The notes under the pieces were generated by a model. The model was not told where the DNA came from. It saw only the letters and a program-made list of their open reading frames with translations, and made no database searches. Of a DNA stretch of 37,995 nt, positions 1 to 37,995 are shown piece by piece. Each line of letters opens with the position of its first letter. Positions within the stretch are counted from its first letter, which is position 1. The position numbers and the translations under genes were made by a program. The stretch spans positions 1 to 37,995 of IMG/VR virus record IMGVR_UViG_3300048080_000252; one strand, given 5' to 3'. Source of the stretch: a virus.

Positions 1-43
1 CCAACGCCGGAGACCAGGCAATGCCGCGCCAGTTGTTGTCGGC
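1..43. repeat. Terminal overlap: nt 1-43 identical to nt 37953-37995 (assembly-type circular closure)
   Basis: Direct reading: ccaacgccggagaccaggcaatgccgcgccagttgttgtcggc occurs at both ends. The junction lies inside a 185-nt exact internal repeat (316-500 equals 37869-37995 plus 44-101). Confidence 0.9.
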
Positions 44-595
44 GGCGCTGGTGCGGATCGTCCAGGTGATCCCATCGGGCGAGGTCATCACCCGGTTGCC
101 CACCCCGCTGGCGAAGGCCACAGCCACGAACAGGCCGCGCTCAGGCGACCAGGCAATGGCAGTCCAGCCATTGTCGGCGGCGCTGGTACGGATCGTCCAG
201 ATGATCCCATCGGGTGAGGTCATTACCCGGTTGCCGACTCCGCTGCTGGCCACGACTGCGAACAGACCGAGCTGCAGCGACCAGGCGACGGCATTCCAGT
301 TGTTGTCGGCAGGCGTGGTGCGGATCGTCCAGGTGATCCCGTCGGGCGAGGTCATCACCCGGTTGTTCGTCCCGGTCTCCGCCACGGCCACGAACAGGCC
401 CAACGCCGGAGACCAGGCAATGCCGCGCCAGTTGTTGTCGGCGGCGCTGGTGCGGATCGTCCAGGTGATCCCATCGGGCGAGGTCATCACCCGGTTGCCC
501 GTCCCGTTGATGGCCACAGCCGCGAACAGGCCGCGCTCAGGCGACCAGGCAATGCCGTACCAGTTGTTGTCGGCCGCGCTGGTGCGGATCGTCCA
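1..595 (-). repeat. 132-nt (44-aa) coding tandem repeat array, terminator cassette, units 1 to mid-5
   Basis: Period-132 recurrence of ggtgcggatcgtccaggtgatccc(a/g)tcgggcgaggtcatcacccggttg. It translates on the minus strand to WTIRT(S/T)(A/P)ADNxWxxIAWSPxxGLFxAVAxxGxGNRVMTSPDGIT. Confidence 0.9.
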
Positions 596-883
596 AGCCA
601 CGCCCATCGCTCCCCGGAAGCCGTCCAGTGCCACCCGGACAGCGTTCATCACGCCCCGCAGCGCCGGATAGGTCGCGGCGGCCCCGGTGATCTGGAACCG
701 CGGATGCGCCAGGCCCGACGGCCCGCTGTGCGAGCGCACCCTGGGCCCGGAGATCCGCTGGTAGACGAGGTACGGCAGGGCGGCCTCCTGCGGCGCTTCG
801 ATCGGGTAGATGCGTGTGCCCACCAGGGCTGCCACGCCGGCGTTGTTCTTGAGGTGCTCGTACAGCGCCTCCTCGATGACCAT
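1..883 (-). CDS. Tail terminator (DUF3168/SPP1 gp17-like) carrying an inserted 7-unit propeller-like repeat cassette; 5' part, continuing at 37952..37537 if the contig is circular
   Basis: ATG at 883 abuts the TAG (884-886) of the upstream gene. The N-terminus (MVIEEALYEHLKNNAGVAALVGTRIYPIEAPQEAALPYLVYQRISG...) looks like a tail terminator and sits in the terminator position after the gp15/gp16/gp16.1-like genes. From residue 97 the frame reads 44-aa WTIRTSAADNNW..GNRVMTSPDGIT units. The ORF is open to nt 1 and absent from the ORF track only because it has no stop in the window. 883+416 nt = 433 codons, in frame with the right-end ORF. Confidence 0.75.
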   Translation of the reverse strand, partial: MVIEEALYEHLKNNAGVAALVGTRIYPIEAPQEAALPYLVYQRISGPRVRSHSGPSGLAHPRFQITGAAATYPALRGVMNAVRVALDGFRGAMGVAWTIRTSAADNNWYGIAWSPERGLFAAVAINGTGNRVMTSPDGITWTIRTSAADNNWRGIAWSPALGLFVAVAETGTNNRVMTSPDGITWTIRTTPADNNWNAVAWSLQLGLFAVVASSGVGNRVMTSPDGIIWTIRTSAADNGWTAIAWSPERGLFVAVAFASGVGNRVMTSPDGITWTIRTSAADNNWRGIAWSPAL

Positions 884-5215: not shown

Positions 5216-6106
5216 TCAGCTCACAAAGGCCGTGATCCAGGGCAGCGCCACGGCCGCGCCACCCAGGGCGGGCACTCGGCCGCCGCCCGTCGAAGGTCGA
5301 TTGACTTCACTGGCAAACAGCCCCGACTGCAGATCGTCGGCAAGGGCCGCGCGGATCGCCGCCGCGGTCGTCGCCTGGTTGCCGATGGCCGCCCACAGTT
5401 CGTCGCCCGGCTGGGCCGCGACCGAAAGGGAAACCGCCTGGCTCTTCAGGCCAACAGAGTTGACGACGGCTGCCACGTTGGCGAAGCCGAGGAGGGTCAG
5501 TGCTGGGTTGCCGGCCAGCACCGGGACGCCCCGGTACACGGCTGCCTCGGCCCAAGTGATCGTGACCGCGGCGGTCGTCACCCGGAAGCGCAGGGTGATC
5601 GAGCTCGAGCTCTTCGGGCAGACGCCCAGCCAGACATAGAATGTCTGGGTCGAAGCGAGAGCGAGCGCCGCCGTCAGGTTGGCCGCATCGAAAGCGCCCC
5701 GTAGCAGCTGCCCCATCCGCACAATCGTGCCGGCCGCCTTGGGTGCGCCGGCGGCATTGAGCACCATCCAGCCGGCGCCATCCTGCCAGATGAGCTGCTC
5801 GCCCACCTCCAGGGTGACCTTGACGAGCGTCCGCTGGTTGGTGCCGTCGTACATCTCGACCGTGATGACATGCGGGATCGTGTCGACGTTGAAGAAGTCG
5901 AGGTACTTCGTTTGGCGCTGCGTCGAAGCCGCCGGCGACGCCACGATCGTGACAGGCGTCGTCCCGTTCAGGACGGTCATCAGATTGCCCGGCGTGAAGG
6001 CCGTGGCCGTCACGTCCGCCCAGTCCGAGATGGCGTGCGGATTGCTCGCGGCGATCGCCTCGCCCAAGAAGGCCCGCACGCTCTTGGAAGTCGTGTCGAG
6101 GATCAT
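5216..6106 (-). CDS. Hypothetical beta-rich protein, partner of the fibre-like gene
   Basis: 296 aa. The ATG at 6106 overlaps the upstream stop (TGATG). No motif recognised. Confidence 0.75.
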   Translation of the reverse strand: MILDTTSKSVRAFLGEAIAASNPHAISDWADVTATAFTPGNLMTVLNGTTPVTIVASPAASTQRQTKYLDFFNVDTIPHVITVEMYDGTNQRTLVKVTLEVGEQLIWQDGAGWMVLNAAGAPKAAGTIVRMGQLLRGAFDAANLTAALALASTQTFYVWLGVCPKSSSSITLRFRVTTAAVTITWAEAAVYRGVPVLAGNPALTLLGFANVAAVVNSVGLKSQAVSLSVAAQPGDELWAAIGNQATTAAAIRAALADDLQSGLFASEVNRPSTGGGRVPALGGAAVALPWITAFVS

Positions 6107-6618
6107 CAGAATCCCACCGACAAGCGGGCCAGCACCTGCGCCTGGCTCAGGCCGCCACCCCCGCCGGCGGGGGTGGCCAGCGTGCCATCATCACGGACGA
6201 ACTTCGTCCCATCCGGCAGGCCGCTGGCCAGCTGGGCCATCGGGACCTGCCCTCCGGCGCCCAACGAGGCATAGCCATTCGCTTGACCCTTCTCCGTCTC
6301 CTTCTGGTAGCCCGCGTGCGGGTCGGCGGCGGCCTCGTGGGCCGCTACCGCGCCCGCCAGCTCATAGACACCGACATGGCCATGCCCCGAGGACGAAGCC
6401 CCGATCGCCGCCGGCGTCAGGATGTCCGGCTGCCCAGTCGCATGACGCGCCGCGTGGTCCTCGGCATGTGTCGGCTGATTGAGCGCCAGCTTGCTCTCCA
6501 CAACGCCTGCGCCAGCGGCCACGTCGACGTTTACGATGCCGCCCAGCGTGCCGTCCGCCTCGAGCTGTGCCCGGGTGATCTTCTGCCCCTGGGGCGTGGA
6601 GAGCGTGATCTTGCCCAT
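6106..6618 (-). CDS. Fibre-like protein (tail-fibre-type motifs) encoded inside the head module
   Basis: 170 aa with HAARHATGQPDILTPAAIGA, KGQANGYASLGAGGQVPMAQL and DGTKFVRDDGTLATP, motifs I associate with phage tail-fibre proteins. The ATG overlaps the portal stop (TGATG). Confidence 0.7.
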   Translation of the reverse strand: MGKITLSTPQGQKITRAQLEADGTLGGIVNVDVAAGAGVVESKLALNQPTHAEDHAARHATGQPDILTPAAIGASSSGHGHVGVYELAGAVAAHEAAADPHAGYQKETEKGQANGYASLGAGGQVPMAQLASGLPDGTKFVRDDGTLATPAGGGGGLSQAQVLARLSVGF

Positions 6619-9116
6619 CAGCGCTCGAAGTACTCCCTCTCGCCTTCGATCTCCGTTATCTGCCCGTCGCGGCGACGGACCTTCTGCGTTTCCTTCATCC
6701 GCTTCGGGTAGGTCGGTTGATTCACGACCGTCACCGGAGCCGGCTCGATGTGCGCCTCTACCTTGACTTCCGGCGCGGGCAGGTTCAGGGCGGCGATTGC
6801 CTCGCCCACGCGCCCCATCCCCCGTTCCATCGCGTCGGCCACCGGCTGCATATCGGCCGCCGGCACTTCGATGCGCGGCTCGGACCTGACTTCCGGCGCC
6901 GGCAGCTTCAGGCCGTCGATCGCCTCGCCCATGCGGCTCATCCCTCGTTCCATCGCGTCGGCCACCGGCTGCATATCAGCCGCTGGCACTTGGCCAACCA
7001 CGACCTGCCCCAAAGCCTCGAGTGCCTTGGCGTTCATGGCCAGGACCCGGGCGATCGCTAGCGAATGGCTCGCCTCGGCTCCTCTCTCGCTTCGCGGCTC
7101 GTCGAGAAGATCCCGCGATCGCCCGCCCTCGGCCGTCACCATGCAGTCGCACCCCTCGTGCGCGGGCGGATGCCCGACGTCGTGATCGTTCACCAGCGGC
7201 ACGTCGGCGCCGCTCGGCTGGAACGACTCCCCCGCGCTCAGGAAGTTCCCCTGGATCCCGATCACCTTGCCATTCAGCCGCGAGCAGTACGGGCAGTTCT
7301 CGCCCTGAGCGTTCCAGCGCAGGCGGGCGATCCCGGCCACCAGGAAGACGAACCTGGCCACGGCGTTGTTGGCGCGGATCGTCTCCCACTGAGCGACCTT
7401 GTCCGGCCGCCGCTCCTCCCACTCGGCGAAGCGCTCGTCCAACGCCTCGATGGGATCCCGGCCAGCCTCGACGGCCTCGCGCGCCACCTGGCGCACCTGG
7501 CCGATGCTCGAGCCCACGTGCCGGCTGGCGTAGGCCTCGCCGTACTCACCGACGAACTGCTCGAGCTCGGGCGTCACCTCCGGCTCGGCGCCCACCTCAT
7601 CGGCCGCCGCGGCCGCGACGACTTCGGCGTAACTGTTGAAAGCCGGCGCCATCTGGCGCAGGATGAAGTCCTTGTGCTCCTCGTAGAACGTCTCCAGCCA
7701 CAAGCTGAACTCGGCGAAGCCGCGCTGGCGGAAATGCTTCCGCGCGCCCTCGCGCACGTCCTGGATCTCCCGGCGGACAACCCTCCGGGCCGCATCTGCG
7801 AAGACGCGCTGATAGGCGGTGGCCAGCCGCCGGCGGGAGAGGCCAGCCTGGCGTGCGCGTTGCTCGCCGTGGGGGTCGGCCGACACCGTGCGGCCATCGA
7901 GCGAACGCACGCCGGCGCCGGCCTGGTCGGCGGGGATCATGTTTAGCGGGACCAGGTAGACGTCGCCGCCCTTGATGGGGTTCTGGTTCTCGAGCTCCCG
8001 GATATCGTTGGCGTTGAACCAGCCCCACTGACGGGCCGTGGCGTAGGCCTGGTAGCGCGTCTGCGTGTCGCCCCTCAGGAGCGCGTCGACCAGGAATTCG
8101 GCGAAGAACTCCCTGCGGTCGGCCGCCGTGAACAGGTCCCGCAGGATCGCCTGTTCCCAACGGACCAGCCAGGTCCGGACCGAGCCGGTGACGAAGTCGA
8201 TGGCCTGGTGCTCGATGTTGGAGAACGTCGCCCGCTCGAGATCGGCGATCTTGTGCGGCGGCACGTTGTAGATGCGCGCGATCTCGGCCACCTGGAAGCG
8301 ACGGGTCTGCAGGAACTGAGAATCCTCGGGAGGGAAGCCGATCTTCTCGGCCTTCATCCCCTCTTCGAGAATGGCCATCCGGTGCTTTTTCTTAAGCGGT
8401 CCGTACTCCTCCTGCCAGGACTCGCGGATGTTCTTCTCCGCCGCGGGCTTGAGCTTTCCGGGGTGTTGCAGCACCAGCCCGGGCGTCGCATCGTTTCCAA
8501 AGAAACGCGCCCCGTACTCCTCCGTCGCCATCGCCAGAGCGATCGCCTGGCGCGCCAGGGAGACCGGCGAGTAGCCGACCAAGCCGTCGAAGCCCAGCCC
8601 CTTCACGTGGAAGACGAGCTCCTTGGGCAGGGTGATTTCATTGCCACCCACCGACTCGGGGAGGCGGTAGAGATACTGGAGCTGACCCTGGCGCCGGCGG
8701 ACTTTCATCCGGTCGGGCCGCAACGGCCAGACAGCGCGCACTCTGCCGAATCCGTCGAGCTCGATCTCCCCGTAGGCGTTGCCCCACGTAAGCAAGTGGC
8801 CCATCTTCGTTTCGCGGAACTCAAGGCTCGTCATCTCGGGATTGGGCTGGTTGTGCAGGAGCGGGTACAGGTAGTGATCGGTCGCCCGCCTCTTGCCCCC
8901 ACCCGGCAGCCGTTGGTAAACCACGAGCGGCAGCGAGGCGACACTCTCCGCAAGCACACGGACGCAAGCCAGGACGGCCGTCACCTGGAGGGCGTTCTCG
9001 GGCGTGACGTGGACGCCGGTGGCCGTCTCCCATCCGAAGGCCGAGGCCAGGAGCCACTTCGGAGGCTCCTGCGACGGGTGGAAACGCTCCTCCATCGCGC
9101 GGACGAGAAGGCCCAT
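6618..9116 (-). CDS. Portal protein (HK97 family) fused to a Mu F/SPP1 gp7-like head-morphogenesis domain and a duplicated C-terminal segment
   Basis: 832 aa. The N-terminal ~400 aa are portal-like (..ALQVTAVLACVRVLAESVASLPL..YPLLHNQPNPEMTS..). Residues 607-653 (NCPYCSRLNGK...HPPAHEGCDCM) carry the MuF/gp7 signature. Two 41-aa repeats follow. Confidence 0.8.
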   Translation of the reverse strand: MGLLVRAMEERFHPSQEPPKWLLASAFGWETATGVHVTPENALQVTAVLACVRVLAESVASLPLVVYQRLPGGGKRRATDHYLYPLLHNQPNPEMTSLEFRETKMGHLLTWGNAYGEIELDGFGRVRAVWPLRPDRMKVRRRQGQLQYLYRLPESVGGNEITLPKELVFHVKGLGFDGLVGYSPVSLARQAIALAMATEEYGARFFGNDATPGLVLQHPGKLKPAAEKNIRESWQEEYGPLKKKHRMAILEEGMKAEKIGFPPEDSQFLQTRRFQVAEIARIYNVPPHKIADLERATFSNIEHQAIDFVTGSVRTWLVRWEQAILRDLFTAADRREFFAEFLVDALLRGDTQTRYQAYATARQWGWFNANDIRELENQNPIKGGDVYLVPLNMIPADQAGAGVRSLDGRTVSADPHGEQRARQAGLSRRRLATAYQRVFADAARRVVRREIQDVREGARKHFRQRGFAEFSLWLETFYEEHKDFILRQMAPAFNSYAEVVAAAAADEVGAEPEVTPELEQFVGEYGEAYASRHVGSSIGQVRQVAREAVEAGRDPIEALDERFAEWEERRPDKVAQWETIRANNAVARFVFLVAGIARLRWNAQGENCPYCSRLNGKVIGIQGNFLSAGESFQPSGADVPLVNDHDVGHPPAHEGCDCMVTAEGGRSRDLLDEPRSERGAEASHSLAIARVLAMNAKALEALGQVVVGQVPAADMQPVADAMERGMSRMGEAIDGLKLPAPEVRSEPRIEVPAADMQPVADAMERGMGRVGEAIAALNLPAPEVKVEAHIEPAPVTVVNQPTYPKRMKETQKVRRRDGQITEIEGEREYFER
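6765..6990 (-). repeat. 123-nt tandem duplication within the portal-MuF C-terminus
   Basis: gacttccggcgc(g/c)ggcag(g/c)ttcagg...ccatcgcgtcggccaccggctgcatatc(g/a)gccgc(c/t)ggcactt occurs at 6765 and 6888. It encodes VPAADMQPVADAMERGM(S/G)R(M/V)GEAI..L.LPAPEV twice. Confidence 0.85.
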
Positions 9117-11462: not shown

Positions 11463-11837
11463 TTAAGGTCCCCCTCCCCAATGCCCTTCCTCCGTGGCCG
11501 TTTTCCGAGAGTGACAGGACTTGCACAGGGCCTGGAGGTTCTCCTCGTCGTCCGTTCCTCCCTGGTCCCGCGGAACCATGTGGTCCACCTCGCTTGCCGC
11601 CGCGACGCCGCCGCCATGCTCCCCGAACGGGTCGGCACAAATCGGGTGCGCAGCCAGGAAGAGCAGCCGGAGCCTCCGCCATCGCCGGTCGTAGCCCCGC
11701 CGAGCTGCAGAGCCGCGGCTTTCCTCGTAGCGCTTCCGCTCCTCCTCGGCGTGGCGTGGACAGAGCCGCCCCCCCTTTTTTTGAACGAGCTCCGGGCAAC
11801 CCGGCGCCCCACATCCGCGCGGTGCATTTCTCGGCAT
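11463..11837 (-). CDS. HNH endonuclease (terminase-associated type)
   Basis: Start trimmed to the ATG at 11837, with AGGAAGGA upstream. ...CPELV..GRLCPRH...EVDHMVPRDQGGTDDEENLQALCKSCHSRKT is an HNH motif. An HNH gene next to P27 terS is the usual HK97-like arrangement. Confidence 0.85.
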   Translation of the reverse strand: MPRNAPRGCGAPGCPELVQKKGGRLCPRHAEEERKRYEESRGSAARRGYDRRWRRLRLLFLAAHPICADPFGEHGGGVAAASEVDHMVPRDQGGTDDEENLQALCKSCHSRKTATEEGHWGGGP

Positions 11838-28091: not shown

Positions 28092-28526
28092 CTACTTCAG
28101 ATTGGTGGCCGCCAGGATGATGACGACCAGGGCGTTCACAGCAAGAATCGCCAGGAACTTCCAGTCGATAGATCCCTCCTTGACATGCTCGACCTTGAGC
28201 TCGGATACCTCGGAGACGTTGGCCAGGCGCGTTTCCATCAGCTCCGCCTCCGGGACCTTCACCTTCTCCAAGACGGTGATCCGCGTTTCGTGCTCGGCCG
28301 CTGTATTGCGCAGGCCTGGACTGTGGTTGCCCACGATCTCCTTGTGGATCTCGTCCACCTTGCGGTAGTAGTGAGCCTGGTCTGACTCCATCCGGTCGAC
28401 CTTCTGCGAAAGGGAGTCGAGCTCCTGGCCATTGGCCTCGGAGAGCTGTTTGAGATCTGCCATCGCCCCCCGGATGAATGCCAGCTGCACGGGGACCACG
28501 TCGGACGGATTGGTATCGGGCATCAC
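28092..28526 (-). CDS. XhlA-like coiled-coil protein with C-terminal TM anchor (lysis accessory)
   Basis: 144 aa: a long coiled-coil followed by WKFLAILAVNALVVIILAA. The ATG overlaps the upstream stop (ATGA). Confidence 0.55.
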   Translation of the reverse strand: MMPDTNPSDVVPVQLAFIRGAMADLKQLSEANGQELDSLSQKVDRMESDQAHYYRKVDEIHKEIVGNHSPGLRNTAAEHETRITVLEKVKVPEAELMETRLANVSEVSELKVEHVKEGSIDWKFLAILAVNALVVIILAATNLK

Positions 28527-29485
28527 GGGTGAGCGCCTCCGGGTTGGTGTTGGGCTTCCAGCGTGGCCACGCGTTCCTCAAGCGGCACGGGCAGCGGGGC
28601 GGGCGGCGGCGTTTCCGGGGAAACAAGCTGCAGGTTGGCGATATAGGTGGCCAGCTCCGGCAGCCGATAGAGCGTCTTGTCCAGCGACCAGAAGTTGATC
28701 CCCACCAGGCGCGTCCCGAGGTTCTGCCTCAGCCACTCCACCATGAGCGAGACGCCCTCCACCGAGGGCTTCCAGCCTGGTGCTGCCTCGTAGCCTGTTC
28801 CGATGAATGCTGGCAGGGTGGGGAACCAGGGGATATCCGGCCGGCCGACGCGCTGGGCAATCACCTCGTGGCTCTGCACGTCCCGCGCCACCTGCGCCAG
28901 GTAACGGCTGGGATTGGTCTCACCGATCGGATACAGCTGATGGGCCAGGCCGTCGATGATGTAGAGGCCTGTGGGGCGCCCAGGCTCATCGCCCGGCGCT
29001 TCGACGCGGTACTTGAGCCACTTCTCCCACTGCATCCAGGAATTGCCGGGCGCGTAGCGGTAGGACTGGAGGTAGACCTTGCAGGGCAGCCGCCCGAGCG
29101 CCCTCAGGAACGGCCCCAGGTTGGCGATGTGCTTTTGCGCTATGTCGCCCTCGACGTCGAGAAAGACATAGGGCGGGTTGTAGTACGGGACGATCGTGCC
29201 CCTGAGCAGCCGCGCTTCGGCCTCCCACAGCCTGAGGTAGATCGGGCCCCAGACGTCCACAGGAATCGGCGCCGGCAGGGCTTTCAGTGCGCGCTCGAGA
29301 TCCCGATAGGTCCGTCCCTTCCACACAACCTTGGTCTGCAGCTTCCCGCCATACTCGAACGGGCCTTCGATGGCGCGGAGGGCAACCCGATCGGGCCTGA
29401 GTGCGACGATCTCCTGGATGGTCTGCTCGAACGACCATCGGGTGCCGGTCCAGTTCCAGGGCCAGGTAAGGCTAAGGCTTTTCAT
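28523..29485 (-). CDS. Putative endolysin (TIM-barrel/GH25-like glycoside hydrolase; tentative)
   Basis: 320 aa. It sits directly upstream of, and coupled to, the XhlA-like and holin genes. ..VFLDVEGD.., ..KVYLQSYRY.. and ..GINFWSLD.. loosely resemble GH25 motifs. GGAGGAGG RBS upstream. Confidence 0.4.
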   Translation of the reverse strand: MKSLSLTWPWNWTGTRWSFEQTIQEIVALRPDRVALRAIEGPFEYGGKLQTKVVWKGRTYRDLERALKALPAPIPVDVWGPIYLRLWEAEARLLRGTIVPYYNPPYVFLDVEGDIAQKHIANLGPFLRALGRLPCKVYLQSYRYAPGNSWMQWEKWLKYRVEAPGDEPGRPTGLYIIDGLAHQLYPIGETNPSRYLAQVARDVQSHEVIAQRVGRPDIPWFPTLPAFIGTGYEAAPGWKPSVEGVSLMVEWLRQNLGTRLVGINFWSLDKTLYRLPELATYIANLQLVSPETPPPAPLPVPLEERVATLEAQHQPGGAHP

Positions 29486-29521
29486 TTGCAGTCGACACCG
29501 CCTCCTCCGTTCATCGAAACC

Positions 29522-32500
29522 TCACTGCCCGGTCATCGCCCGGTTGCCGGTGCCGCTGCCGGCCACGGCGGCGAACAGACCCAAGGCGGGAGACCAAGCG
29601 ATGCCATCCCAGCTGTTGTCGGCCGGGCTCGCGCGGATCGTCCAGTTGATCCCGTCGGGGGAGATCATCGACCGGTTGCCGACGCCGCTGTAGGCCACGG
29701 CCGCAAACAGGCCCAGCTCGGGCGACCAGGCGATGCCATCCCAACTGTTGTCGGCGGCGCTGGTACGGATCGTCCAGTTGATCCCGTCGGGCGAGGTCAT
29801 CACCCGGTTGCCCACGCCCGTTTCGGCCACGGCGGCGAACAGACCCAAGGCGGGCGACCAAGCGATGCCATTCCATCTGTTGTCGGCCGCGCTGGTGCGG
29901 ATCGTCCAGTTGATCCCGTCGGGCGAGGTCATCACCCGGTTGCCCACGCCGCTGTAGGCCACGGCGGCGAACAGACCCAACGCGGGCGACCAGGCGATGC
30001 CCGCCCAACTGTTGTCGGCCGCGCTGGTGCGGATCGTCCAGTTGATCCCGTCGGGCGAGGTCATCACCCGGTTGCCGACGCCGCTGGCGGCCACGGCGGC
30101 GAACAGACCCAAGGCGGGAGACCAAGCGATGGCGTGCCAGAAGTTGTCGGCGGCGCTGGTACGGATCGTCCAGTTGATCCCGTCGGGCGAGGTCATCACC
30201 CGGTTGCCCACGCCGCTGCCGGCCACGGCGGCGAACAGACCCAAGGCGGGAGACCAAGCGATGGCGAGCCAGAAGTTGTCGGCGGCGCTGGTACGGATCG
30301 TCCAGTTGATCCCGTCGGGCGAGGTCATCACCCGGTTGCCGACGCCGCTCTTGGCCACGGCGGCGAACAGACCCAAGGCGGGCGACCAGGCGATGTCCGC
30401 CCAGCCGTTGTCGGCCGCGCTGGTGCGGATCGTCCAGTCTAATTTAGCAAAGGCGAACTCGCTCCGCCACGTCGTTCGCACGAGCATCCCGGCACGGTCA
30501 AGCCACTCGTGCTCGACCATCCCCAGGCGGCCGTAGTCGTCGATGCCGTAGTCCGGAAGCCGGAGACGGATCCTATCCAGCAGGTCGGCGGCAAATTGGA
30601 GGTCCGGCCGGCCGACTACACTCACCAATGGATACAGATGCTGGCCGGAGAGGAGGCTCGCCAGCAGGGCGGCGATCTCCTGGCCCTTGGCCGTGTTCTG
30701 CTGCCAGGGCAGGTCGTGCTCGAAGACGCTTCTCACATTGGCGGCCGCCGTGGCCTCGAGGATCGTGGGATTGGGCTCTGCCAACGCATCGCCGCGGACC
30801 TTGAGCAGCGTGATGTATCCGTTTACGCCCCCGGTGTTCGACACCACGAGCTTCACCGTCAGGCCGAAGACCGTCGCCACTACGGTGAAGTTTCCCGTTA
30901 GATTCGTCCCGCTGCCATCCGAGGCCGAGTTCATCAGGTAGTCCGTCGTGGCTACCGGCGTCAGCACGCCGAGCGCGGGGACTTCCTGGTTGTTGTAGGA
31001 AAACGGCGCGAAGAGAGTCAGCGACTCGCCGGCGGGGACGAAGGGCGTGTCCTGCAACCGCCACAGCTCGCCGGTCGCCTGGCGCACACGGGGATGGACG
31101 ATGACTTTGGCCTTGCCCCGCACGATCTCCCACGGCTGGGGCAGGCCGACCTCCCGCTGCACGTCCGCCTGATAGACAGTTAGAACGACGTCGTCAGAGG
31201 CATACCGGCCGCGGAACTTCGCCTTGCCGTCGGCGGCGATGGTGAACAGGCCGAGCTCGCTCTCCGCCAGGTCCTGGATCTCCTGGTCCGCCTGGCGGCG
31301 GTCCGCCCACCAGTAGCGGATCGTGTCGGCCGAGCCGATCAGGTCACGGCCCCACAGCGCCGGCCAGGAGACGTCGTCGAGCACCAGCCCGATCGCCGTC
31401 CCCGTGGCGATGTTCTCCTTGACGGCGATGCTGGTGGAGCGCTCCTTGAGCCAGGCCCATCCGTCCTCGAGGACGATCTGCACACGGGGATTCAGCACGT
31501 CGCCCGAAGGGCGGAGATCGGCGATGCGTCCGGCGAAGACGGGATGCGTGACAAGGCCGTCGTGGACCCGGATCCTGGCAAAATGCCCGGGCTTGACATT
31601 GGGATAGAGTGGCGAGGCCACGTTGTAGGCGTTGTAGCGACCCTGCGGGTTGTTGAGGACCGCCGTCGCCGTCCCCACGGAGAACCGCTCGAAGCCGTCG
31701 CCGCCGGGCTTGATGAAGAAATCGCGGCCGCGCCGGCCCTTGAGGTCCACGAGGTTCTGTGCTTCGTCTGCATCAGGAACCGTCACCGAGGTCATCGCCC
31801 GGTTTCCGGTGCCGCTCTGCGCCACGGCCGCGAACAGGCCCAGTGCAGGCGACCAGGCGATGCCGAGCCACTGGTTGTCGGCAGCGCTGGTGCGGATCGT
31901 CCAGTTGATCCCGTCCGGCGAAGTCATCGCCCGGTTGCCGGTGCCGGTGAGGGCCACCGCCCCGAACAGGCCCAGCTCAGGGGACCAGGCGATGCCGTAC
32001 CAATCATTGTCGGCCGGAGTGGTGCGGATCGTCCAGTTGATCCCGTCAGGCGAAGTCATTGCCTGGTTGCCCACGCCGGTACGTGCCACGGCTACGAATA
32101 GGCCCAGTTCCGTAGACCAGGCGATGGCGTTCCAGTTGTTGTCAGCCGGAGTGGTGCGAATCGTCCAGTTGATCCCGTCGGGCGAGGTCATCGCCCGGTT
32201 GCCGGCGCCGCTCTGGGCCACGGCCGCGAACAGGCCGAGCTGCGGCGACCAGGCGATGCCACTCCAGTTGTTGTCGGCCGGAGTGGTGCGGATCGTCCAG
32301 TTGATCCCGTCGGGCGAGGTCATCGCCCGGTTCCCCACGCCGGTTACCTGTGCCACGGCTACGAATAGGCCCAGTTCCGTAGACCAGGCGATGGCGTTCC
32401 AGTTGTTGTCAGCCGGAGTGGTGCGAATCGTCCAGTTGATCCCGTCGGGCGAGGTCATCGCCCGGTTGCCGGCGCCGCTCTGGGCCACGGCCGCGAACAG

Positions 32501-33682
32501 GCCGAGCTGCGGCGACCAGGCGATGCCACTCCAGTTGTTGTCGGCCGGAGTGGTGCGAATCGTCCAGTTGATCCCATCCGGCGAGGTCATCGCCCGGTTT
32601 CCGGTGCCGCTCTGCGCCACGGCCGCGAACAGGCCCAGCGAAGGTGACCAGGCGATGGCGACCCACAAGTTGTCGGCGGAGGTCATGACCCGGTTGCCGA
32701 TCCCACTCCAGGCCACGGCTGCGAACAGGCCCAGCTGCGGCGACCAGGCGATGCTGTACCAGTTGTTGTCGGCCGGGGTGGTGCGGATCGTCCAGGTGAT
32801 CCCGTTGGGCGAGGTCATCACCCGATTGCTGACGCCGCTGTAGGCGACAGCCGCGAACAGCCCGAGCTCAGGCGACCAGGCGATGCTGTACCAGTTGTTG
32901 TCGGCCGGAGTGGTGCGAATCGTCCAGTTGATCCCGTCGGGCGACGTCATCACCCGATTGCCGGTCCCGCTGTTGGCCACGGCCGCGAACAGACCCAACG
33001 CCGGCGACCAGGCGAGGCCATACCACTGGTTGTCGGCCGGGGTGGTGCGGATCGTCCAGTTGATCCCGTCGGGCGAGGTCATCGCTCGATTGCCGGTCCC
33101 GCTGTTGGCCACGGCCGCGAACAGACCCAACGCCGGCGACCAGGCGATACCCTGCCAGTTGTTGTCGGCAGCGCTGGTACGGAGCGTCCAGTTGATCCCG
33201 TCGGGCGAGGTCATCACCCGGTTGCCCACCCCGCTAGAAGCCACAGCCACAAACAGGCCGAGAGCAGGCGACCAGGTGATGCCATACCAACTGTTAAGGC
33301 CGGGCGTGGTGCGGATCGTCCAGTTGATCCCGTCAGGCGAGGTCATCGCTCGATTGCCGGTCCCGCTGTTGGCCACGGCCGCGAACAGACCCAACGCCGG
33401 CGACCAGGCGATGGCGAACCAGCTGTTGTCGACGGGGGTGGTACGGAGCGTCCAGTTGATCCCGTCGGGCGAGGTCATCACCCGGTTGCCCACCCCGCTA
33501 AAGGCCACGGCCGCGAACAGACCGAGCTCAGGCGACCAGGCGATCCCCAGCCAATTGTTGTCCGGGGTGGTGCGGAGCGTCCAGGTAGGCGGCGAGGAGC
33601 GCAGCATCCAGGTCAATTTGTCAAACGCGCCATCGTCATCCCAGTCGACCTGGAATTCCCAGCGCAGAGCCGGTAGCGTCAT
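29522..33682 (-). CDS. Dit-like distal tail protein (1386 aa) carrying three 7-unit propeller-like cassettes
   Basis: The ATG overlaps the tape-measure stop (ATGA). The non-repeat parts are residues 1-23 (..RWEFQVDWDDDGAF..) and 633-1082 (..GRRGRDFFIKPG..ATAVLNNPQGRYNAYN..YITLLKVRGDAL..MVEHEWLD..). Repeats occupy residues 24-632 (14 units) and 1083-1386 (7 units). Confidence 0.8.
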   Translation of the reverse strand: MTLPALRWEFQVDWDDDGAFDKLTWMLRSSPPTWTLRTTPDNNWLGIAWSPELGLFAAVAFSGVGNRVMTSPDGINWTLRTTPVDNSWFAIAWSPALGLFAAVANSGTGNRAMTSPDGINWTIRTTPGLNSWYGITWSPALGLFVAVASSGVGNRVMTSPDGINWTLRTSAADNNWQGIAWSPALGLFAAVANSGTGNRAMTSPDGINWTIRTTPADNQWYGLAWSPALGLFAAVANSGTGNRVMTSPDGINWTIRTTPADNNWYSIAWSPELGLFAAVAYSGVSNRVMTSPNGITWTIRTTPADNNWYSIAWSPQLGLFAAVAWSGIGNRVMTSADNLWVAIAWSPSLGLFAAVAQSGTGNRAMTSPDGINWTIRTTPADNNWSGIAWSPQLGLFAAVAQSGAGNRAMTSPDGINWTIRTTPADNNWNAIAWSTELGLFVAVAQVTGVGNRAMTSPDGINWTIRTTPADNNWSGIAWSPQLGLFAAVAQSGAGNRAMTSPDGINWTIRTTPADNNWNAIAWSTELGLFVAVARTGVGNQAMTSPDGINWTIRTTPADNDWYGIAWSPELGLFGAVALTGTGNRAMTSPDGINWTIRTSAADNQWLGIAWSPALGLFAAVAQSGTGNRAMTSVTVPDADEAQNLVDLKGRRGRDFFIKPGGDGFERFSVGTATAVLNNPQGRYNAYNVASPLYPNVKPGHFARIRVHDGLVTHPVFAGRIADLRPSGDVLNPRVQIVLEDGWAWLKERSTSIAVKENIATGTAIGLVLDDVSWPALWGRDLIGSADTIRYWWADRRQADQEIQDLAESELGLFTIAADGKAKFRGRYASDDVVLTVYQADVQREVGLPQPWEIVRGKAKVIVHPRVRQATGELWRLQDTPFVPAGESLTLFAPFSYNNQEVPALGVLTPVATTDYLMNSASDGSGTNLTGNFTVVATVFGLTVKLVVSNTGGVNGYITLLKVRGDALAEPNPTILEATAAANVRSVFEHDLPWQQNTAKGQEIAALLASLLSGQHLYPLVSVVGRPDLQFAADLLDRIRLRLPDYGIDDYGRLGMVEHEWLDRAGMLVRTTWRSEFAFAKLDWTIRTSAADNGWADIAWSPALGLFAAVAKSGVGNRVMTSPDGINWTIRTSAADNFWLAIAWSPALGLFAAVAGSGVGNRVMTSPDGINWTIRTSAADNFWHAIAWSPALGLFAAVAASGVGNRVMTSPDGINWTIRTSAADNSWAGIAWSPALGLFAAVAYSGVGNRVMTSPDGINWTIRTSAADNRWNGIAWSPALGLFAAVAETGVGNRVMTSPDGINWTIRTSAADNSWDGIAWSPELGLFAAVAYSGVGNRSMISPDGINWTIRASPADNSWDGIAWSPALGLFAAVAGSGTGNRAMTGQ
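29525..30436 (-). repeat. 132-nt coding repeat array, Dit C-terminal cassette (7 units)
   Basis: WTIRTSAADNxWxxIAWSPALGLFAAVAxSGVGNRVMTSPDGIN occurs seven times. The last unit is truncated at ..GNRAMTGQ*. Confidence 0.9.
31787..33613 (-). repeat. 132-nt coding repeat array, Dit N-terminal insertion (14 units = 7+7)
   Basis: Units WT(I/L)RTTPADNxW...GNR(A/V)MTSPDGIN. An internal junction ..GNRVMTS|ADNLW.. lacks 12 aa exactly between units 7 and 8. The array ends ..GNRAMTS|VTVPD. Confidence 0.9.
32083..32599 (-). repeat. 267-nt higher-order (two-unit) duplication inside the N-terminal array
   Basis: 32083-32332 and 32350-32599 differ at 3 of 250 positions by direct alignment. Confidence 0.9.
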
Positions 33683-35592
33683 CGGCTCACCCCGAAGGCC
33701 TTGCGCACGGCTGCCTCGATGTAGGGCGCCAGACGCGTCTCGGCCTCGTAGCGATCGGCCAGGGAGACGAGCGGCGAATACTGCAGGCTGACTTGCACGG
33801 AGGTCCCGCCGCCGAAGCCGCGGGTGGGTACGCCAGCGCCCACGCCGACTGCCGCCAGGGACGGAAGCCCCGGCATGGCCAGGCCTACGCTCAGGGCGGG
33901 CAGCCCTCCCTCGAGCGCCCGCAGCTGCCCGACAATCCCGCGCAGCCCGAGCTCGAATGGCGTCGGACTTCCAGGGGTCAACCAGCTCGGCAGCTTGACG
34001 TTACGGACCGCGTTCGCGAAGGCATTGAGCTTGTCGACGACGCGCTGGATCAGGTCGCGGATCGTATTGAACGGTCCCAGGAGCGGCACCAGCACGTGAT
34101 CCTTCAACCACTGGAGGGCCGGACCGATGACAGTCATCACGACGCCGGCGACGCGCTGGAGAATCGGCAGGATGTTCTCCACGAGGAAGCTCCAGACCTT
34201 CTGGAGCGCCGGCCATAGGACGTTCGTCCACAGGCCGGCCAGGATGCGCAGGGCCAGCCCGAGGACGGCGCCCACGACGTCGGCCACGGCTCGGATCACC
34301 GGCATGATGACGTTGCGGAAAATCTCAGCCATTTGATTCAGGAAGGGCTTGATCTTCCCCTCCCAGATCGCCGTCAGGACATCGCGGATCCCGCCCCAGT
34401 TGTTTTTCCAGGCCGCCGCGAAGAGGGCGATGATCGCGACGATGGCCAGGATGGCCAGCCCCACAGGCCCGGTCAACACGCCGGCGACGGCGCCCAGGAC
34501 AGGCAGCAGTGTCCCGATGGCGCCCACGATGGAGCCGATCACGATCAGCAGCGGCCCGGCGGCCGCAGCAATGCCCAGGATGGTCAGGATGGTCTTGCGC
34601 TGCGCGGGATCCAGCGCCGTGAACTTCTCTATGAGGCCTTGAAGCCAGACGACCAGTTCCTTGGCGATGGGGAGCAAGTCCGTGCCAATGGCGCCCGCCG
34701 CGTCGACCAGCTGTGCCTTGAGGGTGCGCTGTGAGTTGGCCAGGCTGTCGCTCGTCCGGATGAAGTCGCCCTGCGCGTTCGTCGTCTGCTCCATGATCAG
34801 GGCGTAGGCCGCCTGCGCCCGCTGCGCCGGCGTGAGCGCCTCCTGAGCGCCCAGGGTCGCCTCGTTGAGACGCTCCTGGATCTCGGCCAGCTTCTGGGCC
34901 GAATCGCGGGCCTGAATGCTTCCCTCGCCCCACTTGGCGATGGCTTCCGTGTCGGCGATCTGCGCCTTTTCCAGGTCGAGGGTGAGCCCTTGCACGGCGG
35001 TCATGTCAACGCTCAGGTCGACCAGGCCGAGCTCCATCGCCTTGGCAGCGATCGTCGCCGCGTTGAGGTTCACGCCCAAGCGGCGCAGCGGCTCGACCTC
35101 GCCCACCAGCCCGGCGCGCAGCGCCATCGTCGCCTCGGTCGGGTCGATGTTGTTGAACGAGGCCAGGTCGGTGGCCAGCGTCACCAGACCGGTAGACATG
35201 TCGGCCGCGGCTTTCGGCCCCATCTCCATCGACGTGAACAGGTTGCCGAACGTGCCGGCCGCGTCGAGAGCCTGCTGCCGCGACTGGCCGAGCGACGTCG
35301 CCGCCGTGTCGGCCCAGGCCTGGACCTCTGCCGCGCTCTCGCCAAAGACGACGTTGACCTTGTTGACCGTCTCCTCGAGGTCGCTTGCGGCCTTCACCGC
35401 CGCCACGCCGGCGCCGATGATCGGCAGCGTCAGGCCCATTGTCATGCCACGCCCGACCGAGGTCATCCCGGCGCCGATCGTCTGCATCCGGCGCCCGACG
35501 TCCTGGAGCCTTTCAACGCTCGAGCGCAGGTCCGCGTCGAAGCGGGACGCATCCAGAAGCAGGCTGACGATCAGGCTGCTCAGCGTTGCCAT
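33679..35592 (-). CDS. Tail tape measure protein
   Basis: 637 aa. The N-terminal region (..VERLQDVGRRMQTIGAGMTSVGRGMTMGLTLPIIGAGVAAVKAASDLEE..FGNLF..LASFNN..) is of the TP901-type TMP core, followed by a long hydrophobic/Gly-Ala-rich middle. The gene follows the G/GT genes. Confidence 0.85.
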   Translation of the reverse strand: MATLSSLIVSLLLDASRFDADLRSSVERLQDVGRRMQTIGAGMTSVGRGMTMGLTLPIIGAGVAAVKAASDLEETVNKVNVVFGESAAEVQAWADTAATSLGQSRQQALDAAGTFGNLFTSMEMGPKAAADMSTGLVTLATDLASFNNIDPTEATMALRAGLVGEVEPLRRLGVNLNAATIAAKAMELGLVDLSVDMTAVQGLTLDLEKAQIADTEAIAKWGEGSIQARDSAQKLAEIQERLNEATLGAQEALTPAQRAQAAYALIMEQTTNAQGDFIRTSDSLANSQRTLKAQLVDAAGAIGTDLLPIAKELVVWLQGLIEKFTALDPAQRKTILTILGIAAAAGPLLIVIGSIVGAIGTLLPVLGAVAGVLTGPVGLAILAIVAIIALFAAAWKNNWGGIRDVLTAIWEGKIKPFLNQMAEIFRNVIMPVIRAVADVVGAVLGLALRILAGLWTNVLWPALQKVWSFLVENILPILQRVAGVVMTVIGPALQWLKDHVLVPLLGPFNTIRDLIQRVVDKLNAFANAVRNVKLPSWLTPGSPTPFELGLRGIVGQLRALEGGLPALSVGLAMPGLPSLAAVGVGAGVPTRGFGGGTSVQVSLQYSPLVSLADRYEAETRLAPYIEAAVRKAFGVSR

Positions 35593-35945
35593 CAGCGCTT
35601 CTTCCCTCGCAGGTCGCGGCCGCCCAGGGCGGCGTTGAACAGCTCAACCATGTGCAGTATCGACTCGACGCCCTTCGGCCTCTTGGGCCCGTCGAAGCGC
35701 GGCATGAAATCCAGCGGCCGGAACGGCTTGCGCCGGCGCTTGGCATCCCGGTGGGCGTTGGCCACAGTCGAGGCCACGATCCCTGAACGCAGGTCGGCTC
35801 GCTCCTCGCCGAACGGCTCCATCTCGTAGTACGCCATCCACTCGGCGAACTCCCGGCTCGATATCCGCCGCTGCAGCTCGCCGACGGGGATCCCCAGCGC
35901 CAGGGCTAGCCGGAACCAGAACCGTCGCTCCGGCCGCCCTCGGAG
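35592..35945 (-). CDS. -1 frame extension (gpT-like part) of the tail assembly chaperone G-T fusion
   Basis: The -1 frame is open from the slippery site to the stop at 35592-94: LRGRPERRFWFRLALALGIPVGELQRRISSREFAEWMAYYEMEPFGEERADL... This is the typical gpT-type sequence. The predicted fusion is 117+117 aa. Confidence 0.75.
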   Translation of the reverse strand, partial: LRGRPERRFWFRLALALGIPVGELQRRISSREFAEWMAYYEMEPFGEERADLRSGIVASTVANAHRDAKRRRKPFRPLDFMPRFDGPKRPKGVESILHMVELFNAALGGRDLRGKKR

Positions 35946-36295
35946 TTTTTTTCCAGCCCCTCGACGTCATCCCGGCTGATCCCCGAAAGGCGCGAGGCCA
36001 CGCCGAAGATCCGCGTGAGGGCCGCCGCCGACTTGCCGGCCAGCGTCTGGACCTCAGCCTCGGTGAAGAGCCGGTTCCCCGTCTCGTCGACCAACGTGGC
36101 GGTGATCAGCTTGGCCGTCAGGTTCTGCAGGATGACACCGCCCTTGCCGTCGATCACGCCGGCCAGGAAGGTGTCCCGCTCAGCGCCGGTCATCCCCCGG
36201 ACGAGGACGTCGCCGCCCCACTCCGGCATGTGGACCCGCTCGAGCCCCAGATCCTGGGCGCCGGCGATCTCGTCGCGCGTGAGTACCTTGGACAC
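35906..36295 (-). CDS. Tail assembly chaperone (gpG-like)
   Basis: 129 aa between the major tail and tape measure genes: ..VHMPEWGGDVLVRGMTGAERDTFL...LVDETGNRLFTEAEVQTLAGKSAAALTRIF.. It contains the slippery site near its 3' end. Confidence 0.8.
   Translation of the reverse strand: MSKVLTRDEIAGAQDLGLERVHMPEWGGDVLVRGMTGAERDTFLAGVIDGKGGVILQNLTAKLITATLVDETGNRLFTEAEVQTLAGKSAAALTRIFGVASRLSGISRDDVEGLEKNSEGGRSDGSGSG
35945..35951 (-). promoter_or_regulatory. Programmed -1 ribosomal frameshift heptamer A_AAA_AAC
   Basis: Minus strand ..CTG GAA AAA AAC TCC.. in the G frame (seven A residues = plus-strand T run 35946-35952). The next codon in the -1 frame starts at C35945, exactly in frame with the downstream T ORF. 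Confidence 0.8.
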
Positions 36296-36305
36296 AGCGT
36301 GCCTC

Positions 36306-36737
36306 CTAGGCGAGTGTTGGCTGGCCGGTGACCTGCAGGGTGACGGACGCGGCCAGGCTGCCTTCGACCGACTCCTCCGGTTCGAAGCCTGTCACCAGGG
36401 CGGTGAAAGCCCAGGTCGTGACGGCGGTGTCGGGGAAGACCAGCTTGAAGTTGCGCTTCACCCGGTTCTTCAGGTCGGCGATCAGACCCGTCGTCGGGTT
36501 GTGGGTCGCCCCGGTTGGGACGAAGTTCAGGTCGAAGGTCACCTCGCCCGCCGAGAGCAGGGTCCCGACGAACTCGCGCCAGCCGCCCGCCGAGCCGTGG
36601 TGGGTCACTTCCTCCGTGGCCTGCTCGAGCTTCGGGCCACTGATGTCCCTCACCTCGGCGATCGTGGTGAAGTTTTCGGGCCCGGCGCCGTCGCCGATCT
36701 TCAGCAGCGTTCCAAACGAAGCAATTGCGGGGCTCAT
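36306..36737 (-). CDS. Major tail (tube) protein
   Basis: 143 aa: FGTLLKIGDGAGPENFTTIAEVRDISGPKLEQATEEVTHHGS..REFVGTLLSAGEVTFDLNF...FKLVFPD...AFTALVTGFEP..VEGSLAASVTLQVTG. This is the typical siphovirus major tail pattern, and the gene lies upstream of the chaperones. Confidence 0.8.
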   Translation of the reverse strand: MSPAIASFGTLLKIGDGAGPENFTTIAEVRDISGPKLEQATEEVTHHGSAGGWREFVGTLLSAGEVTFDLNFVPTGATHNPTTGLIADLKNRVKRNFKLVFPDTAVTTWAFTALVTGFEPEESVEGSLAASVTLQVTGQPTLA

Positions 36738-36780
36738 GGATACTTGCCTCCTTCCGGATCTCCGGAAACTATGGACCCGC

Positions 36781-37140
36781 CTACGCGGGCAGCTCGACCA
36801 CGCCGAACTTCACGTCGGCGCTCTCGGCCTCCAGATACACGAAGCCGTCCGGGTTCTGCCACCCCAGCGGCAGGAACGGCCCGAACACGGCGTAGCTGAG
36901 GGCGGGGATGCTGTGCGCCGTGATGTCGCCCTTGCGGCCGTAGGGATCGTTGGCGCTGTTGATCGTGACCGTCTTCGCCAGCGTCGCGTGCGTGTTGTGG
37001 GCCACCACCAAGTCGCTGCCCTTGGCCAGGAACTGATTCTTGTTGGGCACGTCGGCGACCGCCATCGTCAGCGCCACGCCCACGGCGGGACTGGGATAGC
37101 GTCCCGGGGCCACCGTCTTGGTCAGCGTAGTTTTCGGCAT
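36781..37140 (-). CDS. Hypothetical tail-module protein
   Basis: 119-aa beta-rich ORF between the terminator and major tail genes. No motif recognised. Confidence 0.65.
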   Translation of the reverse strand: MPKTTLTKTVAPGRYPSPAVGVALTMAVADVPNKNQFLAKGSDLVVAHNTHATLAKTVTINSANDPYGRKGDITAHSIPALSYAVFGPFLPLGWQNPDGFVYLEAESADVKFGVVELPA

Positions 37141-37143
37141 CGC

Positions 37144-37533
37144 TCATTCCTCCTCCCGGTAGGACCCCGGGACTGTGTGTCCGCCCTCGGAGGGCGGAGC
37201 TTGGGCGGGCTCGCGCTGCGCACCCTGTAGAGGGCGCACCTCGCGGCCCCATCGGTCAGAGACGGCTACAAGCGGCGGACTCGGCGGCCGCAGCGGCGGT
37301 TCGTGGACCTCTTGGAGGTGCGCCAGGATGGCCTCCTCGCCGGCCAGCGTGTCCCACGCGCACCGCCGGCAGCGCCACTGCGGGAACCCCTTCCAGGTGG
37401 CCAGGTCGAACGGGCACTCGGCCGCCCCGCCCGCTTCGATGGTCCCCTGGGGTACGGACTCCGGCGCCGTTTCCGTGGAAACGGTCGCGGCCGAAGGGAT
37501 CAGCTCGCCGGTCTCGGATCTCCGCTTGGTCAT
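37144..37533 (-). CDS. Hypothetical protein with a C2H2-like zinc-finger spacing
   Basis: 129 aa. WRCRRCAWDTLAGEEAILAHLQEVH has the spacing C-x2-C-x13-H-x4-H. Confidence 0.6.
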   Translation of the reverse strand: MTKRRSETGELIPSAATVSTETAPESVPQGTIEAGGAAECPFDLATWKGFPQWRCRRCAWDTLAGEEAILAHLQEVHEPPLRPPSPPLVAVSDRWGREVRPLQGAQREPAQAPPSEGGHTVPGSYREEE

Positions 37534-37536
37534 GTC

Positions 37537-37995
37537 TCACTCCCCGTGCCACAGCACGACATCGAGCCGCGCCACGAAACTTTCCTCGCTGTCCATCTCG
37601 TTCTCAACCAGGGCGGCCCCCACCGGTACCCCTGGTGAGGTCATCACCCGGTTGCCCACCCCGCTAAGGGCCACGGCCACGAACAGACCGCGCTCAGGCG
37701 ACCAGGCGATAGCAGTCCAGCTATTGTCGGCGGGCGTGGTGCGGATCGTCCAGGTGATCCCATCGGGCGAGGTCATCACCCCGTTGCCCGTCCCGCTAAG
37801 GGCCACGGCCACGAACAGACCCAGCTGCGGCGACCATGCGATGGCTCGCCAGTTGTTGTCGGCGGCGCTGGTGCGGATCGTCCAGGTGATCCCGTCGGGC
37901 GAGGTCATCACCCGGTTGTTCGTCCCGGTCTCCGCCACGGCCACGAACAGGCCCAACGCCGGAGACCAGGCAATGCCGCGCCAGTTGTTGTCGGC
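37537..37995 (-). CDS. 3' part of the tail terminator-propeller gene (continuation of 883..1 across the junction)
   Basis: Open from the right window edge to the stop at 37537-39, in the same frame as the left part once the 43-nt overlap is removed. It contains units 5-7 and ends with the non-repeat tail GVPVGAALVENEMDSEESFVARLDVVLWHGE*. Confidence 0.75.
   Translation of the reverse strand, partial: ADNNWRGIAWSPALGLFVAVAETGTNNRVMTSPDGITWTIRTSAADNNWRAIAWSPQLGLFVAVALSGTGNGVMTSPDGITWTIRTTPADNSWTAIAWSPERGLFVAVALSGVGNRVMTSPGVPVGAALVENEMDSEESFVARLDVVLWHGE
37633..37995 (-). repeat. 132-nt coding repeat array, terminator cassette, units mid-5 to 7
   Basis: Same unit as 1-595. The 7th unit is truncated at ..GNRVMTSP. 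Confidence 0.9.

Follow-up and report, generated by a model that had tools for sequence, protein, structure and literature searches.

The 37,995-nucleotide (nt) stretch of viral DNA analyzed here (IMG/VR record IMGVR_UViG_3300048080_000252, positions 1 to 37,995; hereafter the window) carries, directly after a tape measure gene, a long open reading frame (ORF) in which a predicted tail-tip hub is combined with 21 copies of a short repeat. This ORF runs on the minus strand from an ATG at 33682 to 29522 (4161 nt, 1386 amino acids (aa)), and its start codon shares nucleotides with the TGA that ends a 637-aa ORF upstream (ATGA at 33679–33682), a case of start/stop coupling. For this upstream ORF, a PHROG scan gives matches to more than 20 tape-measure families (E down to 1e-31), and its product is 79% identical to the tape measure protein of the closest relative (ENA ERZ27248148, hereafter L001). 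A preliminary description, made from the letters of the sequence, proposed that the long ORF encodes a Dit-like (distal tail) protein with 14 repeat units inserted near the N-terminus and 7 more at the C-terminus. The hub fold reported below and the ATGA overlap bear out its view that a tail-tip structural protein is encoded directly after the tape measure, and the repeat architecture holds up largely as proposed; the identity of the protein that carries the repeats does not.

The repeats fall into three blocks of seven. The anchor [AT]WS[PT] occurs 21 times in the ORF at a spacing of 44 aa (45 once), the exceptions being a 32-aa step from unit 7 to unit 8 and a 489-aa gap between units 14 and 15. 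Each of four strand-like motifs (W..IAWS, LFAAVA, NR.MTS, and WTIRT) is also present in 21 copies, 14 within residues 22–636, 7 within 1083–1386, and 0 within 637–1079, and Tandem Repeats Finder (TRF) returns three separate 132-nt arrays of 6.6–6.9 copies with scores (1138–1375) far above chance. Anchors, strand motifs, and arrays thus confirm the count of 14 N-terminal and 7 C-terminal units. The unit consensus is W..IAWSP.LGLFVAVA..G.GNRVMTSPDGI.WT (44 aa). Mean DNA identity between cassettes is 72–78%, and units share 72–84% DNA identity within and between cassettes.

The distribution of motifs at the cassette edges points to a closed fold. Seven tandem units of ~44 aa with four strands each, as in a β-propeller, are found as 7+7+7, with strands assigned by DSSP on a low-confidence model. 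Every cassette contains seven A, B, and C motifs and only six internal D motifs, and the missing D motif is found at the N-terminal edge of the cassette. A single leader (DWTIRTS) precedes the C-terminal cassette, and two consecutive leaders (TWMLRSS and TWTLRTT) precede the double cassette, at whose internal junction (units 7/8) there is no D motif, exactly the 12 residues of the D strand being gone. Such edge-supplied D strands are the expected arrangement for velcro-closed seven-bladed propellers, the fold that each seven-unit cassette most likely adopts, and the order of the leaders points to nesting, in which cassette 2 would be closed by the first leader and cassette 1 by the second.

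Homologues without repeats place the double cassette inside a loop of the hub. A query made of residues 1–23 joined to residues 633–1082 retrieved 174 proteins in a word-indexed search, nearly all of them ~500 aa long, repeat-less, and covering 97–100% of the query. When 61 repeat-less homologues were aligned with MAFFT to the real residues 1–1082, 58/61 ended at residue 21 and 50/61 resumed at residue 637. Because these proteins bridge residue 21 to approximately residue 637, the 14 units represent a true loop insertion, and the alignment that the preliminary description had suggested for locating it refines the insert to residues 22–636; residues 1–23 and 633–1082 are non-repetitive, as that description had stated. 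An exact 43-nt probe over the exit junction had no match in IMG/VR or JGI metagenomes. Four residues (D13, W14, R651, and G652) are invariant across the 61 homologues. The distance from the VDWDxDG block to the RGR block is ~25 residues in homologues vs. 637 here, in agreement with the motif pattern of the preliminary description, in which the two blocks lie close together in related proteins. In a model of the repeat-excised sequence the N-terminal stretch forms a β-strand (residues 7–12, pLDDT (predicted local distance difference test) 75–92) and disorder is confined to the artificial junction. The ~21 N-terminal residues and those from 637 onward, contiguous in the homologues and cofolded in the model, therefore belong to one domain as first supposed, with the extra module in one of its loops, as in "evolved" tail-tip proteins. 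Sampled homologues end in YWxFPTQIGVTSIFG, and cassette 3 stands in the place of this C-terminus. The idea of two cassettes inserted and one appended is consequently right for the loop, while the C-terminal block replaces a conserved tail of ~20 aa. Directly before the insertion point, the invariant VDWDxDG motif (residues 13–18, window 33629–33646) resembles a calcium-binding loop of the DxDxDG pattern.

The core has the fold of a tail-tip hub. AlphaFold modeling of the repeat-excised sequence with 64 homologues gave a pLDDT of 94.1 and a predicted template modeling score of 0.92 (core region pLDDT 92–98). In a Foldseek search of this model against the PDB, the top 50 matches were all baseplate hubs or spikes (E 7e-14 to 1e-8 for named matches), and no named structure of the Dit fold, in which an N-terminal ring domain is joined to a galectin-like domain, was among them. 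The best were spikes of extracellular contractile injection systems (7aef_q, 7b5h_AJ, and 9gtr_q; E ~1e-13), and others included a Neisseria prophage tail protein (3d37), Shewanella MuSo2 (3cdd), Mu gp44 (1wru, 9ki1_G), VgrG proteins, T4 gp27 (1k28_D), phage 80alpha chain 6v8i_AE, Listeria gp18 (3gs9), and the NF5 tail-associated lysin (9m7n). The four-domain hub fold of gp27, Mu gp44, and the Tal N-terminus is thus recovered with template modeling scores of up to 0.72 when normalized on the matched PDB structure (3d37), and a model of residues 1–1082 again yields hub matches only. Among the predicted viral structures that match, some are named as Mu gpP, tail fiber, or minor tail protein. Sequence profiles are less informative: a family profile has one weak match among PDB sequences, the PhiTE "Hub protein" (9cuy_X, E = 0.03), and the repeat-excised sequence matches no family, whether Dit/Sipho_tail or Phage_GPD-type, in Pfam and PHROGs at E up to 10 or in NCBIfam. 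Full-length Pfam and PHROGs scans returned only spurious short matches due to the repeats. On the strength of the models, the core is a gp27/gp44/Tal-type hub with ~140 extra residues and not a Dit. Hubs of the gp27-type fold are trimers, so three chains would be expected per tip, giving 3 × 3 = 9 propellers rather than the 18 that had been envisaged on a hexameric Dit ring. A Dit–Tal fusion was considered and rejected, as the core is only ~450 aa and alignments to single hub chains span its whole length.

Table 1. Coordinates of the hub ORF, its parts, and other tail genes in the window
Feature	Position	Strand	Evidence
Whole hub ORF, 1386 aa, three repeat cassettes	29522..33682	-	ORF list and translation; ATGA overlap with tape measure stop
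Residues 1–21, first hub β-strand and VDWDxDG motif	33620..33682	-	Homologue alignment; model
Residues 22–636, 615-aa insertion of 14 units in loop between hub strands 1 and 2	31775..33619	-	Homologue alignment
Leader, residues 24–40, two tandem outer-strand motifs (TWMLRSS, TWTLRTT)	33563..33613	-	D-type motifs at residues 25 and 34
Repeat cassette 1, units 1–7, residues 24–334	32681..33613	-	TRF array 32672–33584, 6.9 copies, score 1138
Repeat cassette 2, units 8–14, residues 335–632	31787..32680	-	TRF array 31787–32657, 6.6 copies, score 1162
Residues 637–1082, predicted hub core, gp27/Mu gp44-like fold and extra β-sandwich	30437..31774	-	AlphaFold, Foldseek, 174 homologues
Hub loop, approx. 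residues 915–932, NSASDGSGTNLTGNF	30887..30940	-	Inserts in sister lineages, none in target
Repeat cassette 3, units 15–21, residues 1083–1386	29525..30436	-	TRF array 29531–30438, 6.9 copies, score 1375
Tape measure protein, 637 aa, directly upstream of hub	33679..35592	-	PHROG tape-measure families
Gene next downstream of hub, 320 aa	28523..29485	-	41% identical to L001 316-aa ORF
Tail-completion (gp17-type) gene, first part: N-terminal 95 aa and repeat units, off window start	1..883	-	tblastn with L001 gp17-like protein
Tail-completion gene, remainder: last repeat units and 30-aa C-terminus	37537..37995	-	Joined ORF; Logan contig L003

The repeat belongs to a very large family. A word-indexed search gave more than 3600 matches and an exhaustive search 18318 cluster representatives, some of which carry many cassettes and reach several thousand residues; the latter set is dominated by such giant multipropeller proteins and is uninformative on other hub–propeller fusions. 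Among 62 homologues 38–83% identical to the C-terminal cassette, Pfam assigns DUF6242 in 29/62, EPTP in 21/62 (best 6e-22), and ANAPC4_WD40 in 11/62. In cultured phages the module is present in an annotated tail fiber of Caulobacter phage KSC and in the 1439-aa "host specificity protein" gp332 of Xanthomonas phage Xoo-sp13, and it also occurs in long multipropeller proteins whose C-termini we judged by eye to be tail-fiber-like. The closest relative of the C-terminal cassette (83–87% identity) is a 453-aa protein, P0130 (locus L034, JGI 3300032069), that ends another apparent phage tail module, after ORFs of 792+ and 1301 aa. This placement suggests that the cassette is exchanged among phages.

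Related loci came from a 9-sequence alignment, a single-protein query having given no genome relative. The hub of L001 (P0001) is ~70% identical to that of the window, and the gene order there is tape measure, hub (571 aa), 170-aa ORF, 208-aa ORF, and 316-aa ORF. In more distant relatives, too, the hub gene comes right after that of the tape measure, and nothing Dit-like separates the two. Relatives of the phage are prophages of Anaerolineae (Chloroflexota), with prophage copies in Leptolinea and Anaerolinea genomes; the phage is a temperate siphovirus and its host is probably a member of the Chloroflexi. Among cultured phages, a homologue was detectable in Microcystis phage Mae-JY09 alone (28% identity).

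Hubs of this family accept inserts at more than one place. P0001 and the hub on an IMG/VR contig (L010) have the same repeat inserted in a loop at about residues 915–932, which is uninterrupted in the target, while P0002 has a different, unassigned insert of ~190 aa there and P0100 carries a Laminin_G_3 domain. These inserts occupy two loops other than the one used in the target, and the family thus has several permissive loops. P0001 shows only 2 units, and since L010 ends inside its repeat array this count may represent a collapsed array.

The window differs from L001 in what follows the hub. Positions 11718–12858 of L001 hold the 170-aa Zn-ribbon-like ORF and the 208-aa ORF, which we judge from its sequence to be fiber-like (motif TKGDLALASGADAAGRLGVG), and the matching window interval is 29486–29521. 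The window has no counterparts of these two genes, although a homologue of the 316-aa ORF is present, and no fiber gene lies between the hub and that 320-aa gene, whose product has no match in Pfam, PHROG, NCBIfam, or PDB. The statement that the 1386-aa ORF is the only one after the tape measure is accurate in the sense that the 320-aa gene and two membrane-protein genes come next; the sister phage has two extra genes at that place. No other tail genes were recognized among the window ORFs compared with L001 or scanned against Pfam.

Upstream of the tape measure, Pfam and PHROG scans identify a tail assembly chaperone and a lambda-type tail tube protein. A Dit-like gene was recognized nowhere in window 33679–37140 or in loci L001, L004, and L005. 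Before the tube gene lie two short ORFs, both conserved, that encode proteins of 119 aa (36781–37140) and 129 aa (37144–37533) and match no family. On the other side of the hub, the conserved 320-aa protein is followed by two membrane proteins, and a serine integrase and a SocA-type gene come after the tail and membrane-protein genes. The head genes (terminase, portal, protease, capsid, and connectors) lie on the minus strand at ~0.5–11 kb. Within them, ~2 kb (5216–7130, minus strand) separates the portal core from the prohead protease; it contains a 170-aa C-terminal extension of the portal and ORFs of 170 and 296 aa, with no Pfam match and no counterpart in the fetched part of L001, which begins inside the portal gene. 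Long plus-strand ORFs over the repeats (28478–30442, 31650–32843, and 32883–33791; the longest 654 aa) arise as mirror frames of the GC-rich repeat DNA and are not genes.

A second tail gene carries the same module. The repeat is present in an ORF at the window's right end (37537–37956), and the Tail_completion_gp17 protein of L001 matches window 883–560 with its N-terminal part and 37692–37540 with its C-terminal part. The window ends overlap by 43 nt (1–43 and 37953–37995), and the window represents a phage genome in circular permutation, closed within a repeat. With the overlap removed, the tail-completion ORF is in frame (432 aa, 1299 nt) and has exactly seven units, the cassette following approximately residue 95, and once the repeats are excised it matches Pfam Tail_completion_gp17 (PF11367, E = 2.8e-13). 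Its C-terminal junction was recovered in a Logan contig (L003); because the contig closure lies in a repeat, the number of units in this protein is provisional. Judged from its sequence, this protein would carry the module to the head-proximal end of the tail as well.

We consider it reasonably probable that the 1386-aa ORF encodes a tail-tip hub with three grafted propeller-type cassettes, most likely host adhesion modules that replace a separate fiber. The hub would be the central tail-tip protein, of the gp27, Mu gp44, and Tal N-terminal type and trimeric by homology. Two cassettes would be nested in the loop between its first two strands and the third would take the place of the short conserved C-terminal tail, such that in the trimer nine propellers would surround the tail tip. 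The cassettes most likely act as adhesion modules for the host surface, probably for glycans, and would take over the job of the small fiber-like protein that is separate in the closest relative, a replacement suggested by the lack of that gene in this phage. The support for such an adhesin role, which we regard as probable, is correlative.

Several results weigh against this proposal. AlphaFold modeling of residues 1–1082, for which the alignment had no depth in the repeat region, reached a pLDDT of only 45–68 there, and Foldseek found no propeller among the matches of that model. The target repeats match no propeller family in Pfam and NCBIfam, and against the PDB they reach E = 0.046 at best (a WD40 protein); a profile of the propeller family likewise has no significant match among PDB sequences (best 6n1a, E = 0.13). 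Given the low confidence of the repeat model and the lack of a propeller match, we infer closed propellers and their nested closure from the motif layout: of the three propellers first proposed, the 7+7+7 organization fits well and the fold itself is a prediction. Moreover, the hub architecture of the target was found in none of the ~150 relatives inspected, exact repeats could affect the unit numbers in the assembly, and the cassette in the tail-completion protein is easier to reconcile with adhesion to surfaces in general, or with decoration, than with recognition of a specific receptor.

A bolder form of the proposal, which we put forward tentatively and hold to be doubtful, is that the whole adsorption device is one polypeptide, with no Dit, fiber, or separate receptor-binding protein. 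A trimeric hub would then be docked directly on the tail tube and bear nine propellers. In each chain, two of them would be a nested pair whose second and first propellers are closed, respectively, by two consecutive N-terminal strands, so that a 615-aa double domain is attached via one loop, and a second ring of propellers (six if the tail-completion protein is hexameric) would sit at the neck.

The cassettes may also be real propellers that do not bind a receptor, serving instead as catalytic domains (an Asp-box glycosidase or depolymerase) or as general decoration through which virions would adhere to biofilm matrix, sheath material, or particles. An Asp-box is typical of sialidase-type propellers, and the turn SPDGxxW of the repeat resembles it. 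The module is common in secreted bacterial proteins with type IX secretion system (T9SS) sorting domains, and it occurs far from the tip in the tail-completion protein and, in an unrelated protein, as a seven-unit cassette fused to a tail terminator domain. The tail-completion cassette speaks for adhesion to surfaces in general no less than for binding of a specific receptor. However, Pfam scans of the target and its homologues matched no glycoside hydrolase families, the units are all near consensus (no search for catalytic residues or a differentiated active-site blade was made), and the loss of the fiber-like gene coincides with the gain of hub cassettes. On this evidence, we think a nonreceptor role unlikely, and grafted adhesion modules remain our preferred reading.

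We give distinctly less credence to the possibility that the architecture is partly an artifact of short-read metagenome assembly, in which the insertion would be real but the unit numbers (14 and 7), or even the fusion into a single ORF, would result from misjoined near-identical repeats. Units 9–10 and 11–12 of cassette 2 are an exact 208-nt tandem duplication (32083 vs. 32350), and the number of units in the second block is thus only as reliable as the assembly at this point. The final 127 nt (37869–37995) are identical to an internal repeat unit (316–442), as expected when an assembly graph with k=127 terminates at a repeat. Both an independent Logan contig (SRR35513625) and L010 break within repeats, the 2-unit loop of P0001 may be collapsed, and the exact protein is absent from the gene-position index that we searched. 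Against this, the Logan contig recovers the first 70 aa of the hub, including the hub-to-repeat junction, and hub sequence on either side of the insert is collinear with homologues. All four cassettes, the one reconstructed over the window ends among them, keep the reading frame and number exactly seven units, the cassettes differ from one another in sequence, and the special junctions (two leader strands and the 12-aa deletion at units 7/8) are those that closed propellers would need.

The reading of the core as an "evolved" Dit in a hexameric ring, with three propellers per chain and 18 per virion, can draw on the gene's position directly 3′ of the tape measure, the usual one for a Dit, and on the failure to recognize a separate Dit gene in the window or beside relatives, but it is largely refuted by the fold search and very improbable, as the scan of residues 1–23 plus 633–1082 returned 0 Dit or Sipho_tail families, the confident model matches only gp27/gp44/VgrG/Tal hubs, the one weak sequence-profile match is itself to a hub protein, and a core of 450 aa is far above the size of a classical Dit (<300 aa; PMC7533335).

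These observations extend the idea of a decorated tail-tip protein from phages of lactic acid bacteria to an uncultured group of Chloroflexota phages. The scale is unusual, with 21 units and three cassettes per hub chain and a fourth cassette in a neck protein, and the apparent absence of any Dit together with the nested double cassette are the most noteworthy features; if the absence of Dit holds, it would challenge the universality of the Dit ring in siphoviruses. The two phages offer a natural comparison between a fiber-bearing phage and a sister whose fused modules appear to replace the fiber. Neither the hub family (174 matches, no curated annotation) nor the repeat family (18318 representatives) has a solved structure, and both are useful targets for annotation.

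The protein can be set against several known systems. It shares its fold with the hubs of the Tal N-terminus, gp27, Mu gp44, P2 gpD, and VgrG (Foldseek probability 1.0) as well as the position of its gene after the tape measure, and like them it is expected from the model to be a trimeric plug at the tail tip. It differs in having no recognizable sequence similarity to curated families, ~140 aa beyond minimal hubs, no C-terminal lysin, spike, or fiber extension, and no Dit gene between hub and tape measure in any relative examined. Insertion of binding modules in Dit and Tal is established for phages of lactic acid bacteria (Lavelle et al. 2020, PMC7533335), where the Tal of Streptococcus thermophilus pac-group-B phages, a gp27-like domain with two loop insertions, was described at the time as unique (PMC7533335). 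The likeness lies in extra modules placed in surface loops of a conserved tail-tip domain to form a multivalent adhesion device (PMC7533335). Whereas those inserts are single BppA-like or hydrolase-like modules of ~200 aa (PMC7533335), the target has two nested seven-unit cassettes (615 aa) in the first loop and a third at the C-terminus, built from a propeller-type repeat module, in a phage of a different host phylum. In Staphylococcus phage phi11, Gp45 is a separate receptor-binding protein gene product whose five-bladed propeller is the receptor-binding platform (PMC4901313). A β-propeller at the tail tip for host recognition would be common to both, the role in the target being predicted, but here the cassettes have seven units of an unrelated repeat family and are fused into the hub itself. 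Other members of the 44-aa repeat family form seven-unit domains in thousands of proteins 45–87% identical to the C-terminal cassette, where the cassette is terminal or tandem in fibers and secreted proteins, whereas in this phage it sits inside a hub loop and in the tail-completion protein. The target is thus an extreme variation on the known theme of decorated tail tips rather than a new kind of system.

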